From Candidatus Udaeobacter sp. (lineage in GTDB: Bacteria; Patescibacteriota; Patescibacteriia; Magasanikbacterales; GWA2-37-8), in NCBI GenBank assembly GCA_035473115.1, contig DATION010000006.1, positions 521-64,520 on the forward strand: 64,000 nucleotides of DNA, in the 5' to 3' direction. The translations under genes and the position numbers were made by a program. Shown here one piece after another: positions 5,487 through 60,548 of this stretch. Below the pieces are notes generated by a model. The model did not search any database, was not told the DNA's origin, and saw nothing but the letters and a program-made list of their open reading frames with translations. The stretch's first letter is position 1. Each line of letters opens with the position of its first letter.

Positions 5487-5530
5487 ATGGCTATGAAATA
5501 TCTAAATATTGATTGGTTATTTATTTTTTT

Positions 5531-5605
5531 GTCATCCTGAACGCAGTGAAGGATCTCTGTCTTAATTGCTGAACGAGAGGGATTCTTCGCTTTGCTCAGA
5601 ATGAC
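5531..5605. repeat. MITE-like palindromic repeat, copy 1 (short variant) with gtcatcc…gaatgac termini
   Basis: Imperfect inverted repeat gtcatcctgaacg…gaaggatc / gggattc…ctcagaatgac. It shares termini and internal gagggat/gaaggat blocks with copies at 6839-6937 and 60449-60532. Confidence 0.5.
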
Positions 5606-5607
5606 AA

Positions 5608-5970
5608 TTATTTTGTCGTGGTGTTTGTTGAAAAGCTGGAGGATGTTGGAGTGGTGGTCGTGGAAATAACTATCGTCGAAGTTGTGCTTGATTCGGAATT
5701 AATTTGAGCAATAATTGTGTTCAGCATGTTTTTAATCTGCAGTTTTGTCTGTTCTGTTTTTATTTTTGATTTTTCATCATTAAATAATGTTTCCCAATCA
5801 TTCTGGCTGTTTTTGATAAGTTTGTTCTCTGGAGTTTTTGACCATTTAAATGAGGAAAGGCTGATGCTGGTGGCCCAAGCCCAGAGAACTAGTATGATAC
5901 TGCCGGTAACCCCCACACCAATCCAAAGCCACATTCTTGCTTTTGGATTTTCTTGGTATGCCTTAGGCAT
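5608..5970 (-). CDS. Hypothetical small membrane-anchored protein with a Ser/Thr-rich C-terminus
   Basis: 120-aa ORF with one N-terminal TM helix and a low-complexity S/T tail. It lies 4 nt downstream of the MBL-fold gene, so it is probably co-transcribed. Confidence 0.4.
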   Translation of the reverse strand: MPKAYQENPKARMWLWIGVGVTGSIILVLWAWATSISLSSFKWSKTPENKLIKNSQNDWETLFNDEKSKIKTEQTKLQIKNMLNTIIAQINSESSTTSTIVISTTTTPTSSSFSTNTTTK

Positions 5971-5974
5971 AAAA

Positions 5975-6589
5975 TTATTCTTTTTCTAAAACAATTAGTT
6001 TGGTTTCTTCTTGCGGCAAATCTTTTTTCTTAATGATTACTTTCTTTTCTCCAGTTTCCGGTTTTAAGCCCATCTCTTTGATGAAAGCGGCGATTGGCGC
6101 GGCGTCTGGGTCGGTATCGCACTTATAGGCCATTGGGATTATGACGCGCGGTTCTAGTTCTGTGGCCAAAGCGGCTGCGTCTTTAGCGCTTAAGTAATTT
6201 GGTCCGCCACCAACTGGAATAAAAAGAATATCCGGAGTAAGGATTTTTTCCATTTCCGAATTTTCTAATGGTTTTTTTAGTCTGCCCAAAAAGACTAGGT
6301 TCAAACTTTCGCCGTTTAGTTTGTAAATTACGCTTCCTTCTGAGTTTGGCATAGCGTAAATCATGACATTTTTTACTTCTACTTCGCCCAAAGAGTCCAA
6401 AACAAAAGGATCTTGAGAAAGCGTGGCGGCATTTTCTTGTCCGGCGGAAAACAAGGCTATATCCGGGCTAAAACTACGCGGAAATTCGCCAGTTTTTGGT
6501 TTGTAGCCGTCTAAAATAATGGTAACGTCTTTATCTAAATTTTTGGTTTGCAGTTTGATGCAGGTCTGTCCCAGCCAGCTGATATGCAT
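5975..6589 (-). CDS. MBL-fold metal-dependent hydrolase (UPF0173-like)
   Basis: An MHISWLGQTCIKL…type N-terminus and conserved MBL-fold spacing. The ORF is open to 6619, but the Met at 6589 matches the family start. Confidence 0.65.
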   Translation of the reverse strand: MHISWLGQTCIKLQTKNLDKDVTIILDGYKPKTGEFPRSFSPDIALFSAGQENAATLSQDPFVLDSLGEVEVKNVMIYAMPNSEGSVIYKLNGESLNLVFLGRLKKPLENSEMEKILTPDILFIPVGGGPNYLSAKDAAALATELEPRVIIPMAYKCDTDPDAAPIAAFIKEMGLKPETGEKKVIIKKKDLPQEETKLIVLEKE

Positions 6590-6838
6590 AAAGTTAAAGG
6601 TTATTTTTAATGAAATCACCGCCTAATTTAGGGGTGAAATACTGCTTGAAATATAAGAATATTTTATCAGTTTATTTAGAATAGCGCAAGAGGAAAATTA
6701 GATAAAAAGTTGCTGTCCGATCAGATATAAGTTGAATAAGTTTGCTTAGAGATTAATATTGACAAACCGCCCTAAATCAGTCATTATACTCCCATAAGAA
6801 CCGAGAAATCGGGGATTTTGCGTTTTTACGCAACAATT

Positions 6839-6937
6839 GTCATTCCGAATCCCCGTAGTGGATGAGGAATCTATACCTTAAATGAATAGATCCCTCGTCA
6901 CCCGTCCTTCGCGAAGAGCGGGTTCGCTCGGGATGAC
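6839..6937. repeat. MITE-like palindromic repeat, copy 2 (full-length, reverse orientation relative to copy 3)
   Basis: gtcattccgaatcc … gaggaatctat … atagatccctcgt … ctcgggatgac. Its reverse complement aligns block-for-block with 60449-60532. Confidence 0.55.
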
Positions 6938-6950
6938 AAAATAAAAGTAT

Positions 6951-36394: not shown

Positions 36395-37948
36395 ATGCAA
36401 AAAAAATTAAAAACTACAGCTTTTATCATAGTAGATGGTTGGGGGGTTGGGAATCCCAAAGATCCGGGCAATCCAATTACGCCCAAAAGCGCGCCAAATT
36501 ATTTTGCGATGATAAAAAAATATCCTAATTCTCAATTAGAAGCCAGCGGAGAAAGTGTGGGGTTATTTAAAGGTGAAGCAGGAAATAGTGAAGCTGGCCA
36601 CTTAAATTTAGGCGCTGGTCGGGTAGTCAAACAAGATGCGCTTTATATTTCCGATGCGATCAAAGATGGCACGTTTTTTAAAAATAATGCCTTTCGTCAA
36701 GCTCTGCACCATGTAAAAAAATATGACACAGCCGTTCATTTAATGGGCCTATTATCAAATCATAACAGCGCTCATTCTTGCCCGGAACATTTATTTGCTT
36801 TGTTGGACTTATTTCATCAGGAAAAAATAAGAAAAGTTTATTTGCATCTTTTTACCGATGGCCGAGATTCAGGGCAATTTCAAGCGCATAAACATTTTCG
36901 TCTGTTGCAAAAGTTTTTTCATGGCAACGAAAGAATAGCTACAGTAATGGGGCGGTTTTATGGAATGGATAGAAATAAAAATTGGGATCGCACAAAAAAA
37001 GCTTATGAAGCAATGGTTCTGGGAAAAGGCTGCGCGGCAACCAGCGTCGAAGATGCTTTAAGAAATTCTTATGATAATGGCGATACTGATGAATTTACTT
37101 GTCCGACTGTGATTGTCGAAAACAATCGTCCCGTAGCTACTATTAAAGACAACGACGCAATTTTCTTTTTTAATTTACGCAGTGATCGCGCCCGACAATT
37201 AACCAAAGCTTTTGTGCAACCGGATTTTGAAAAGCTTAATCCGGGAGCGTTTGCGCGTCCACAGCATCCAAAAAATACTCGTTTTGTGGCTTTAACTGAC
37301 TTTGGTCCGGATTTGCCCGGAGTGCTGACCGCTTTTCCTAGCCGCGATGTTAATAAAAGTTTGGTGCAAGTTTTATGCCCAAGAAAACAATTATACTTAG
37401 CTGAATCGGAAAAATTTGCCCATATTACGTACTTTTTTAATGGCGGCTATGCGCAGCATTTCTGTGATGAAAAATGGGTAAAGATTGATTCACCGTATGT
37501 AAAAAATTATGAAGACAGACCGGAGATGAGTGCTAAATTATTGGCTGATTATGTTATTAAGGCGATTGAGTCCGGTGAATATGATTTTATTGCGATGAAT
37601 TTTGCTAATATGGATATGGTGGGGCATACTGGTAATTTTAAGGCCGGTCAAAAAGCTGTCAGTGTAGTGGATAGCGAAATCGGCCGCATAGTTAAAGCTT
37701 TGGAAAAAAATGGCGGTCAGGGCGTTATTACGGCCGATCACGGCAATATCGAAGAAATGATAGACTTAGAAAACGGCGAACCGGACACCGAACATTCTAT
37801 CAATCCGGTGCCATTTATTATTGTAAATAGCCAAATTAAAACTCCGCGCAAATTACCCAACGGCAAGCTGGCTAATGTGGCGCCGACAGTTCTAAAGATG
37901 ATGGGCATTGCCAAACCAAAAGAGATGACTGCCAAGAGTTTAATTTAG
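36395..37948 (+). CDS. gpmI: 2,3-bisphosphoglycerate-independent phosphoglycerate mutase, copy 1
   Basis: IVDGWG N-terminus, an NSEAGHLNLGAGR metal site and a C-terminal ADHGN motif. Confidence 0.9.
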   Translation: MQKKLKTTAFIIVDGWGVGNPKDPGNPITPKSAPNYFAMIKKYPNSQLEASGESVGLFKGEAGNSEAGHLNLGAGRVVKQDALYISDAIKDGTFFKNNAFRQALHHVKKYDTAVHLMGLLSNHNSAHSCPEHLFALLDLFHQEKIRKVYLHLFTDGRDSGQFQAHKHFRLLQKFFHGNERIATVMGRFYGMDRNKNWDRTKKAYEAMVLGKGCAATSVEDALRNSYDNGDTDEFTCPTVIVENNRPVATIKDNDAIFFFNLRSDRARQLTKAFVQPDFEKLNPGAFARPQHPKNTRFVALTDFGPDLPGVLTAFPSRDVNKSLVQVLCPRKQLYLAESEKFAHITYFFNGGYAQHFCDEKWVKIDSPYVKNYEDRPEMSAKLLADYVIKAIESGEYDFIAMNFANMDMVGHTGNFKAGQKAVSVVDSEIGRIVKALEKNGGQGVITADHGNIEEMIDLENGEPDTEHSINPVPFIIVNSQIKTPRKLPNGKLANVAPTVLKMMGIAKPKEMTAKSLI

Positions 37949-37962
37949 TCTGTAAGTTTTTT

Positions 37963-39540
37963 ATGAAACATAAACCAGTTGTGCTAGCTATATTGGACGG
38001 CTGGGGAATAGCGCCGGCAGCTGATGGGAATGCTATTACTAAAGCGCAAACTCCAAATTTTGCAAAGTTTATTAAAAATTATCCAGTCATGACTGTGCAC
38101 GCTTCGGGAAACGAAGTTGGTTTGTTGTTCGGAGAAATGGGTAATTCCGAAGTCGGCCACTTAAATATCGGCGCGGGCAGAGTTTACTACCAAAGCTGCC
38201 CGAGAATAAATCAAGAAATAACTAGCGGATCTTTTTTTAAGAACCCGGCATTTTTGGCTGCTGTGGCTAAAGTCAAAAAAAATAATTCCAAACTGCATCT
38301 GGTTGGTTTGATCGGCTCCGGAAATGTGCATGCCAGCAGTGCGCATCTTTACGCTTTGCTTGATTTGTGTAAAAAAGAAAAATTAACTAAAAATGTTTTT
38401 GTGCATGCCATATTAGACGGCCGTGATTCTTTGTATAATTCGGGTAAAGAATTTGTTTTGGAACTAGAAAAAAAAATGTCCGAATTAAAGATAGGCAAAA
38501 TCGCCACTTTATCCGGCCGATATTTTGCCATGGATCGTGATAATCGTTGGGATAGATGTGAGAAAGCTTATCGGGCTATAGCCGAAGGCAAAGCCGACAG
38601 ATATGGCGAAGACCCGATTAAAGTAATTGATGAGTCGTATGAACAAAAAAATTATGATGAAGAATTTACCCCGACTGTTTTAACTTCTAAAAACAAACCG
38701 GTGGCTACCGTAGAAAATGGCGATGCAGTTATCTTTTTTAATTTTCGGCCAGACCGAGCCCGTGAACTGACTCAAGCTTTTGTGGTTCCGTCTTTTAATA
38801 AATTTTCTAAAACATATTTGGACGATCTGTTTTTTGTTACCATGGCGGAGTACGAAAAAGAATTGCCGGTTATGGTGGCATTTCCGCCGATAATCGTTCA
38901 TAATTGTTTGGCCGAAGTTATCAGTAAAGCCGGTTTAAAACAGGTTCATATCGCGGAAACGGAAAAATACGCCCATGTTACATTTTTTTTGAATGGCACT
39001 TTAGAGGATCCATTTCCGGGAGAAGACAGAGTACTTATTCCATCGCCAAAAGTTTCCAGTTATGATCAAAAGCCCGAAATGTCAGCTTTGGAAATTCTTA
39101 AAGAAGTGACTAAAGCGATTGAAAGTGACAAGTATGATTTTATAGTTTTAAATTTGGCTAATGCTGATATGGTCGGGCATACCGGAGTTTTACCGGCCGG
39201 AATCAAAGCTTGTGAAGTGGTTGATAAATGTTTAGGCGAAATTTCTGAACGGGCTTTGGCTAGGGGAGGAGCTCTGGTTATTACCGCCGATCATGGCAAT
39301 GCCGAAGAAATGACCAATCTGCAAACCGGAGCGATAGATAAAGAACACTCCACTAATCCGGTGCCGCTAGTTATTATTGCTAAAGAATTTATGGGTCAAG
39401 CCGGACCATCAGGAGATGCGCCGGAAGGAGATTTGAGTCTATTGCATCCGGTGGGAGTATTGGCAGATGTGGCGCCGACAGTTTTAAAATTGCTAGAAGT
39501 GCCGCAGCCGGAAGATATGACTGGCAAGCCGTTAATTTAA
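37963..39540 (+). CDS. gpmI: 2,3-bisphosphoglycerate-independent phosphoglycerate mutase, copy 2 (tandem paralog)
   Basis: ILDGWG, NSEVGHLNIGAGR and ADHGN. Collinear with copy 1, but diverged. Confidence 0.9.
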   Translation: MKHKPVVLAILDGWGIAPAADGNAITKAQTPNFAKFIKNYPVMTVHASGNEVGLLFGEMGNSEVGHLNIGAGRVYYQSCPRINQEITSGSFFKNPAFLAAVAKVKKNNSKLHLVGLIGSGNVHASSAHLYALLDLCKKEKLTKNVFVHAILDGRDSLYNSGKEFVLELEKKMSELKIGKIATLSGRYFAMDRDNRWDRCEKAYRAIAEGKADRYGEDPIKVIDESYEQKNYDEEFTPTVLTSKNKPVATVENGDAVIFFNFRPDRARELTQAFVVPSFNKFSKTYLDDLFFVTMAEYEKELPVMVAFPPIIVHNCLAEVISKAGLKQVHIAETEKYAHVTFFLNGTLEDPFPGEDRVLIPSPKVSSYDQKPEMSALEILKEVTKAIESDKYDFIVLNLANADMVGHTGVLPAGIKACEVVDKCLGEISERALARGGALVITADHGNAEEMTNLQTGAIDKEHSTNPVPLVIIAKEFMGQAGPSGDAPEGDLSLLHPVGVLADVAPTVLKLLEVPQPEDMTGKPLI

Positions 39541-60416: not shown

Positions 60417-60448
60417 ATTGAATTATAGTTTTAATTAATTTTTTAGTT

Positions 60449-60532
60449 GTCATCCCGAGTGAGGCCGTAGCCGACGAGGGATCTATGTTGTTTGAATAGA
60501 TTCCTCACCTCATGCTGAGGATTCGGAATGAC
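60449..60532. repeat. MITE-like palindromic repeat, copy 3
   Basis: gtcatcccgag … acgagggatctat … tagattcctca … ggattcggaatgac. Block-for-block match to the reverse complement of 6839-6937. Confidence 0.55.
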
Positions 60533-60548
60533 AAAACAATCGTAGCAC

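Follow-up and report, generated by a model that had tools for sequence, protein, structure and literature searches.

Three short inverted repeats lie just upstream of gyrA, uvrB and clpP in a bacterial contig, and it has to be asked what kind of element they are and what could recognize them. The stretch analysed (the window, 64 kb in full) is part of a 130.5-kb contig with about 40% G+C. An MBL protein identical to that of the window (P0121) is labelled 'Candidatus Udaeobacter sp.' (Verrucomicrobiota) at NCBI; gene content, G+C content and every close relative indicate Candidatus Magasanikbacteria or other Patescibacteria, so that a mis-binned or mislabelled contig is probable. We consider each copy to be, with a probability of roughly 0.78, an ORF-less head-to-head pair of DNA hairpin motifs of the SRM or CGTC/TGTC-tagged REP kind. 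Part of this explanation, and held with the same confidence, is that the copies represent the gene-less form of a unit in which two such arms enclose an ssn gene. The kind as such is already known (2013, 2025); new is a variant in sequence and structure that falls outside the published motif and occurs in a CPR genome.

Three copies in the window and their relatives elsewhere

The sequence TGTCATYCYGA has six exact matches in the 64-kb window, and these form three inverted pairs (5530/5606, 6838/6938 and 60448/60533) with the exact termini TGTCATYCYGA…TCRGRATGACA and a unit size of 77–101 bp. With one-mismatch matches included, nine occurrences stand against 2.5 expected, a number reached by none of 100 shuffles. 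The original prediction of three intergenic copies with mutually inverted termini therefore holds, with true ends one base outside those it gave. Of the internal blocks that it had described, GAGGRATCTAT and ATAGATYCCTC were found in copies 2 and 3, and alignment agrees with its view that copy 2 is the reverse complement of copy 3. It had also placed the copies just upstream of gene starts, and the distance to the downstream start codon is indeed 43 nt for gyrA, 12 nt for uvrB and 31 nt for clpP. Copy 1 begins 1 nt and copy 3 15 nt after the preceding stop codon on the same strand, and copy 2 probably lies in the 5' UTR of uvrB. According to Pfam, the neighbouring genes are gyrA, a conserved 120-aa ORF, an MBL-fold hydrolase, uvrB, clpP and a DHH/DHHA1 protein. 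The copies are composed as follows (numbers with L denote loci outside the window).

5530–5606, no strand: copy 1, complete head-to-head dimer of 77 bp with exact termini; orthologues present in L209 and L211, the site being empty in L206–L208
Neighbours of copy 1 (Pfam): stop of the conserved 120-aa ORF (5608–5970, minus) and start of gyrA (5486, minus)
5530–5557, plus: forward motif of copy 1 with TGTC tag, ATCCT/AGGAT stem, GA..GA, AC-GCA-GT mini-hairpin and CTC tail; from covariation, the DNA fold giving the 5-bp stem weakly
5558–5578, no strand: variable centre of copy 1, diverged from the L209 orthologue, the arms being 51/52 identical
5579–5606, minus: forward motif of copy 1 with TGTC, ATTCT/AGAAT, GA, GC-AAA-GC and GA; exact fold predicted as DNA, and covariation
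6838–6938, no strand: copy 2, complete dimer of 101 bp with exact termini
Setting of copy 2: divergent region between the MBL-fold hydrolase gene (5975–6619, minus) and uvrB (6951, plus), with a promoter-like site at 6759–6787 upstream of the copy
6838–6873, plus: forward motif of copy 2 with TGTC, ATTCC/GGAAT, GA, an enlarged inner hairpin ATCC..GGAT and GA; from the DNA fold and within-arm type agreement
6874–6886, no strand: centre of copy 2, the loop of a central stem TCTAT/ATAGA; from RNA folding of the units and the central-stem test
6887–6938, minus: forward motif of copy 2 with TGTC and ATCCC/GGGAT, its 33-nt insert forming a hairpin of its own (ACCCGCTCTTCGCGAAGGACGGGT); from sequence and from RNA and DNA folds
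60448–60533, no strand: copy 3, complete dimer of 86 bp with exact termini; one Logan contig from the same sample terminates within it
Neighbours of copy 3 (Pfam): stop of the DHH/DHHA1 gene (60549, minus) and start of clpP (60416, minus)
60448–60485, plus: forward motif of copy 3 with TGTC, ATCCC/GGGAT and GA..GA around an inner hairpin GGC-CGTA-GCC; from the DNA fold and within-arm type agreement
60486–60496, no strand: centre of copy 3, the loop of a central stem TCTAT/ATAGA; from RNA folding of the units and the central-stem test
60497–60533, minus: forward motif of copy 3 with TGTC, ATTCC/GGAAT and an inner hairpin CCTCA..TGAGG that dominates the DNA fold

Two further observations were made in the window. 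Between copy 3 and clpP (60417–60447) the clpP ATG is preceded at 5 nt by a perfect TATAAT and lacks anything like a Shine-Dalgarno sequence, and the starts of gyrA and uvrB are likewise without obvious ribosome-binding sites; these three genes may use leaderless or non-SD initiation. The segments 37724–37947 and 39277–39539, which lie 1.55 kb apart and are about 71% identical, look like tandem paralogous genes.

The original prediction named a lack of further copies as the result that would speak against it. Large numbers were found elsewhere. When one genome per species was scanned for the pattern of the termini with a gap of 50–80 nt, this yielded at least 120 genome loci from about ten phyla with the same termini and interior blocks, compared with about 17 chance matches estimated for the whole genome collection under uniform base composition. 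Bacteroidota, Acidobacteriota, Chloroflexota, Gemmatimonadota, Firmicutes and Proteobacteria are among the matches listed, as are Verrucomicrobiota, Planctomycetota, Ignavibacteria and Patescibacteria. Nearly all of the 132 elements from these loci share the interior TGTC-ATYCY-GA-GCGNAGC-GA-RGRAT-CT, a variable centre and AG-ATYCY-TC-GCTNCGC-TC-RGRAT-GACA. Another 78 carriers were found among the viral contigs of IMG/VR, and in 198 loci the arms occur as left-right pairs nearly throughout; a blastn search of plasmids and phages with the consensus element gave no match at E ≤ 1e-3. The repeat is thus a dispersed family and not an operator specific to three loci, as had been proposed. Whole elements also occur in tandem, with a period of about 135 nt in Pedobacter nototheniae (L079, 3513–4125) and of about 88 nt at the end of an IMG/VR contig (L150, 8545–8970); L087 (3237–4838) contains a further array. 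Logan short-read contigs of the same or related samples stop inside elements (the ends of L205, corresponding to window position ~60455, L210 and L212), as would be expected of multi-copy repeats; the elements fragment the assemblies of these genomes.

The relatives of the host allow the history of copy 1 to be followed. It is absent from the closest relatives (L206–L208; MBL identity 90% and 87%), where the flank can be aligned up to the gyrA start. Orthologous copies stand directly after the stop codon in the more distant L209 and L211 (MBL identity 84% and 78%). Read from these alignments, whole units are gained or lost cleanly in the lineage of the window, in agreement with the earlier view of an inserted or deleted unit. 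In L211 (3508–3581; a Patescibacteria relative, GCA_964496095.1) the copy 1 orthologue contains a nested second dimer, TGTCATTCCCGCCAAAGCGGGAATCCAG…CTGGATTCCCAATCAAGTTGGGAATGACA, which closely resembles the Neisseria repeat NTS; hence two SRM types are present in one CPR genome, one inserted in the loop of the other.

Fold of the element

The conserved fold consists of three hairpins. Each arm has an unpaired TGTC tag, a 5-bp stem ATYCY/RGRAT, tandem G·A, a GCGNAGC mini-hairpin and a CTN tail, and the element comprises two such arms inverted around a short copy-specific central stem-loop. As the two motifs are inverted, one forward motif is located at the 5' end of each DNA strand.

When the hairpin .....(((((..((...))..)))))... 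was imposed on 71 distinct canonical arms, 95.6% of the cells were paired, compared with 13–50% for slid-partner controls. Double changes were found in 76 cells versus 28.9±4.3 in shuffles, and none of 500 shuffles equalled the observed value. The main covarying pairs are 8:24 (CG/UA, 39/29), 10:22 (UA/CG, 44/27) and 13:19 (GC/AU, 47/17), whereas the first stem pairs after TGTC are A6:T26 (AU in 61/71) and T7:A25 (UA in all 71). The tag itself is invariant in the collected arms, which is partly imposed by the search pattern; the covarying stem follows it in all of them.

The original prediction had the whole unit fold into one long imperfect hairpin. At two variable positions in 109 parsed elements, agreement within the arm amounted to 106/109 and 104/109 compared with about 66 between the arms. 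Among the 45 elements with unlike arm types, Y/R agreement was 42/45 and 40/45 within the arm and 1–3/45 between arms. Covariation therefore runs within the arms and not between them, and this test rules out a single long hairpin. The sequence of the central stem varies by copy (146 distinct starts among 208) yet stays complementary, with 4.8 uninterrupted pairs versus 2.5 with swapped partners.

At the apex GCGNAGC all four N occur, flanked by 5'-GA/5'-GA steps, and a covarying variant AC-GNA-GT is also present. The same sequence, d(GCGNAGC), is described in the abstract of PMC13037366 as an extraordinarily stable DNA mini-hairpin; there it is a biophysical motif, and that abstract gives no biological role in repeats. 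Nearest-neighbour folding of six arms as DNA gave −1.6 to −9.2 kcal/mol with a model that does not account for sheared G·A pairs or GNA loops; five of the six z-scores were not significant, and the proposed fold was recovered in four arms, the other two folding otherwise. It is thus covariation that makes the case for the arm hairpins, single-arm DNA folding being weak and not significant by itself.

GIY-YIG genes between repeat arms

A gene associated with the repeat came to light on a viral contig. There, in L188, a GIY-YIG ORF separates an arm from the complete short element that comes after it; altogether L188, L199 and L200 contain an arm, a GIY-YIG ORF of about 100 aa and a second arm within 420–500 bp. 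The full unit in L199 (2920–3353) and L200 (2917–3338) consists of TGTCATTCTGAGCGAAGCGAAGAATCTCTCTG, about 55 nt, the ORF and then CAGAGAGATTCTTCGCTTCGCTCAGAATGACA. L199 and L200 come from two related genomes, and in both the unit adjoins an RNase E/G gene. L293 is syntenic to L200 and has no unit; this comparison with an empty site is uninformative because the intergenic region is entirely different.

The GIY-YIG protein of L188 has 3,597 homologues, all of PF01541; NCBIfam assigned no family to the GIY-YIG proteins. Hexapeptides encoded by the arms were found at the ends of 57 of the best 120 of these 3,597 homologues (N-terminal VILSEAKNL…, C-terminal …QRDSSLRSE-stop), and the stop codon of the gene is the TGA within the terminal ATGACA. 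We inspected 80 metagenomic homologue loci (50–84% identity): a forward terminus is present at most 250 nt upstream in 40 and a reverse terminus downstream in 39, so that a correctly oriented terminus within 250 nt occurs on one or both sides in 51 loci and on both in 28, where by our own estimate about 0.04 loci would be expected by chance. The published SRM motif is nearby in just two of the 80. The arm type described here also flanks ssn genes on a Planktothrix plasmid and on a Spirosoma plasmid; L202 and L203 are examples of arm-flanked ssn loci. In L202 (Planktothrix agardhii plasmid NZ_LR882964.1, 17347–20616) the arm-flanked ssn lies between a type IIL MmeI restriction-modification gene and DISARM drmA, which is a defence-island context. 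The literature searched for GIY-YIG with COG2827/YhbQ or with MITE contained nothing relevant, and the arm sequence strings retrieved primers only.

This arrangement resembles that of ssnA in Neisseria. NTS (CGTCATTCCCGCGMAVGCGGGAATCYRG) and related SRM hairpins flank ssnA, a single-domain GIY-YIG gene of 94 aa; SsnA binds this hairpin in its single-stranded form and cleaves immediately upstream, whereas dsDNA, RNA and the reverse strand are not acted on (PMC11893778). Cutting has been shown there for the Neisseria and Wolbachia pairs only. SRMs were found near 71% of ssn homologues and on both sides of 42% (PMC11893778). Our GIY-YIG protein is 48% identical (E 7e-17) to an N. gonorrhoeae gene embedded in canonical NTS repeats. 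From this identity and the arm-flanked ssn genes it follows that the window repeats belong functionally with SRMs and CGTC-tagged REPs.

The arms agree with the definition of SRMs in several respects. They are hairpin-forming inverted repeats of the 20–50-nt class, as judged by stem covariation, their unpaired tag conforms to HGTC upstream of the hairpin and gives it orientation, and by homology and flanking counts they enclose Ssn (cd10448-type, single-domain GIY-YIG) genes, often on both sides. Like SRM/NTS, they are short hairpins with an unpaired (C/T)GTC tag and a stem starting with AT, present in hundreds of intergenic copies and on both sides of a single-domain GIY-YIG gene of about 94–110 aa. 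They differ in architecture: five Watson-Crick pairs, tandem G·A and a 2-bp GNA mini-hairpin take the place of the continuous 8-bp stem and 4-nt loop of SRM/NTS. Moreover, unlike SRM/NTS, the copies described here almost always are head-to-head pairs with a central stem, and unlike the characterized SRM hosts, the host is a Patescibacteria (CPR) genome with no ssn seen in the ~71 kb examined. The published SRM sequence, HGTCWYN(0-2)YYVSBRHN(0-5)WNVSBRGN(0-2)RNCYNB, matches the canonical NTS, none of 621 arms and nothing in the window. The published search motif therefore misses a large cross-phylum subfamily, and the 71% association of ssn with SRMs is probably an underestimate.

A close relation also exists to the CGTC-tagged REP superfamily, which includes Neisseria dRS3 and Rickettsia RPE-4/RPE-6. 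According to Di Nocera et al. 2013 (PMC3733652), the tag is 'changed to TGTC in many repeats', the first stem pairs are A-T, the repeats are mostly head-to-head dimers, and they are 'apparently lacking a dedicated transposase'. The arms found here have an unpaired tag of the CGTC/TGTC/CCTC type and an A-T stem start, and they are mostly arranged as head-to-head dimers without a transposase gene. As in the repeats of that paper, the tail is short and unpaired and the copies are intergenic, near gene ends. Its families have 8–9-bp stems and 4–5-nt loops, a comparison by description only; the arm stem here reaches nine stacked positions only when both G·A steps are counted, the loop (GNA) has 3 nt, and many arms carry longer inserts. 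Peptides derived from the arms are absent from the intragenic REP lists in the supplement of PMC3733652.

Competing explanations and possible function

By homology with the Neisseria and Wolbachia enzymes, an Ssn enzyme would act on these copies in this genome. Once replication, repair or DNA uptake exposes a single strand, its 5'-terminal forward motif would fold; a cognate Ssn nuclease would bind the folded motif and make a nick a few bases to the 5' side of the TGTC tag, leaving duplex DNA, RNA and the reverse strand uncut. The repeats would spread and disappear as whole units with no target-site duplication. Candidate single-stranded oligonucleotides for Ssn homologues are the following arm sequences.

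Arm sequence: TGTCATYCYGAGCGNAGCGARGRATCTC
Arm sequence in two-part form: NNNNNNNNN-TGTCATCCTGAGCGAAGCGAAGGATCTC

A more far-reaching reading, which we put forward only tentatively, takes the 420–435-bp arm-ssn-arm units to be autonomous mobile elements of a new type and the gene-less dimers, those of the window included, to be miniature derivatives whose shape an active enzyme preserves in this CPR lineage. A GIY-YIG nuclease of about 100 aa would replace the transposase, and movement would proceed via hairpin-folded ssDNA and leave no target-site duplication. This reading is suggested by the compact units with a stop codon in the terminal arm, by their spread over phyla and viral contigs, by a dimer cleanly present or absent among close relatives, and by how strongly the arms are constrained. 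Chenal et al. 2025 (PMC11893778) likened the NTS-ssnA-NTS layout to an insertion sequence, as a hypothesis only.

Among the alternatives to the reading as gene-less pairs of Ssn-associated motifs, the one that survives best is that the copies are inert fossils of such repeats, the nuclease having gone from the genome and deletion being slow. An HMM of Ssn proteins found no ssn gene in the 64-kb window and 7 kb of extensions (L204/L205), ~71 kb in all, and the loss of copy 1 from the closest relatives would also agree with this. The arm loops of copies 2 and 3 are non-canonical, enlarged and irregular, and both may for this reason be poor Ssn substrates. On the other hand, when the window is compared with L209, 51/52 arm positions of copy 1 agree, whereas identity in the neighbouring gene is 77% overall (56% at third codon positions) and the centre of the element has diverged, so the arms are strongly constrained, by selection or by ongoing homogenisation. 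Compensatory changes within the arm are the rule, and an ssn gene is present in 81% of the genomes that contain more than 200 SRMs (PMC11893778). Overall, we regard inert fossils as unlikely, with enough in their favour to be taken seriously.

Much less probable is that the copies are cis-acting RNA elements (attenuator, terminator, mRNA stabiliser or RNase site) regulating gyrA, uvrB and clpP; the original prediction had proposed an attenuator or RNase target. Each of the three stands 12–43 nt before a start codon, and they share one orientation in that transcription would read the ATTCY-type arm first in every case (minus strand for copies 1 and 3, plus strand for copy 2). Whole units fold stably as RNA (z-scores of −3.1 to −5.7, both strands), and REPs in general are often transcribed and located near gene ends (PMC3733652). 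However, one orientation in three of three copies has a chance of 1 in 4, and nothing can be concluded from it. In the window, Rfam returned only a tRNA above the gathering threshold, the elements giving chance-level miRNA hits with E above 1, and it had no hits on the elements in 18 loci of other phyla at gathering and permissive thresholds. No T-tract follows the copies in a promoter and terminator scan of the window or in the flanks of other elements. Furthermore, the same element stands beside unrelated genes in many phyla, and gyrA of the closest relatives does without it. GNA loops and G·A steps are features of DNA hairpins according to the abstract of PMC13037366, and the Neisseria partner protein acts on ssDNA and does not bind RNA (PMC11893778). 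The proposed attenuator or RNase-target role is thus not supported, and an RNA-level side effect, conceivable above all for copy 2, finds no support either.

Very improbable, too, are REPINs, i.e. REP doublets mobilised by RAYT, an IS200/IS605-like HUH tyrosine transposase. The likeness is considerable: REPINs (Bertels and Rainey 2011, PMC3116915) likewise have two short inverted hairpins and a spacer, cause no target-site duplication, lie between genes near gene ends, are non-autonomous and persist in lineages. Their tag is GTAG and their partner the HUH tyrosine transposase (PMC3116915), whereas the repeats described here have TGTC, and the gene between their arms encodes a GIY-YIG nuclease (51/80 loci). 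In all-against-all ORF clustering around at least 120 loci no other linked gene recurs, the maximum being 8 of the 120 listed loci, and no transposase is linked to the repeats. A GTAG tag with a repeat-flanked RAYT gene was not found, and Di Nocera et al. (PMC3733652) found that CGTC-type repeats flank no RAYT. In addition, REPIN families are lineage-specific, whereas our repeat keeps nearly the same arm sequence across phyla.

The original prediction had called the copies MITE-like, and this stands in the loose sense that they are the ORF-less counterpart of gene-carrying units. The check for target-site duplications that it had proposed came out negative for 2–9 bp in 134 elements: direct repeats of at least 4 bp occur in none of them and flanking repeats of 2–3 bp are at control level. 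In these copies the palindrome is extended symmetrically by T or C at position −1 and A or G at position +1, and complementarity beyond these Y/R positions is limited to a handful of longer stems. That they are classical MITEs, deletion derivatives of a DDE-transposase IS with TIRs TGTCAT…ATGACA, would agree with their inverted TG…CA ends and their presence/absence polymorphism but is hardly tenable given the absence of target-site duplications in 134 copies and of an associated transposase around at least 120 loci, with 'inverted repeats' that are themselves covarying hairpins and a centre that varies by copy instead of being common to them.

A palindrome that is very common 'junk' in metagenomes, where it breaks assemblies and gives rise to spurious peptides such as …RFFASLRMT, is hereby tied to the recently discovered Ssn ssDNA nucleases. 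Each pair of Ssn and motif is a potential new site-specific ssDNA nuclease for biotechnology, and the recognition hairpin that the subfamily described here offers, with its tandem G·A step and GNA mini-hairpin, is well defined. Patescibacteria depend on DNA uptake. In a genome of this group, a system that cuts ssDNA at marked sites, be it incoming or in replication, could affect recombination and the stability of the genome.
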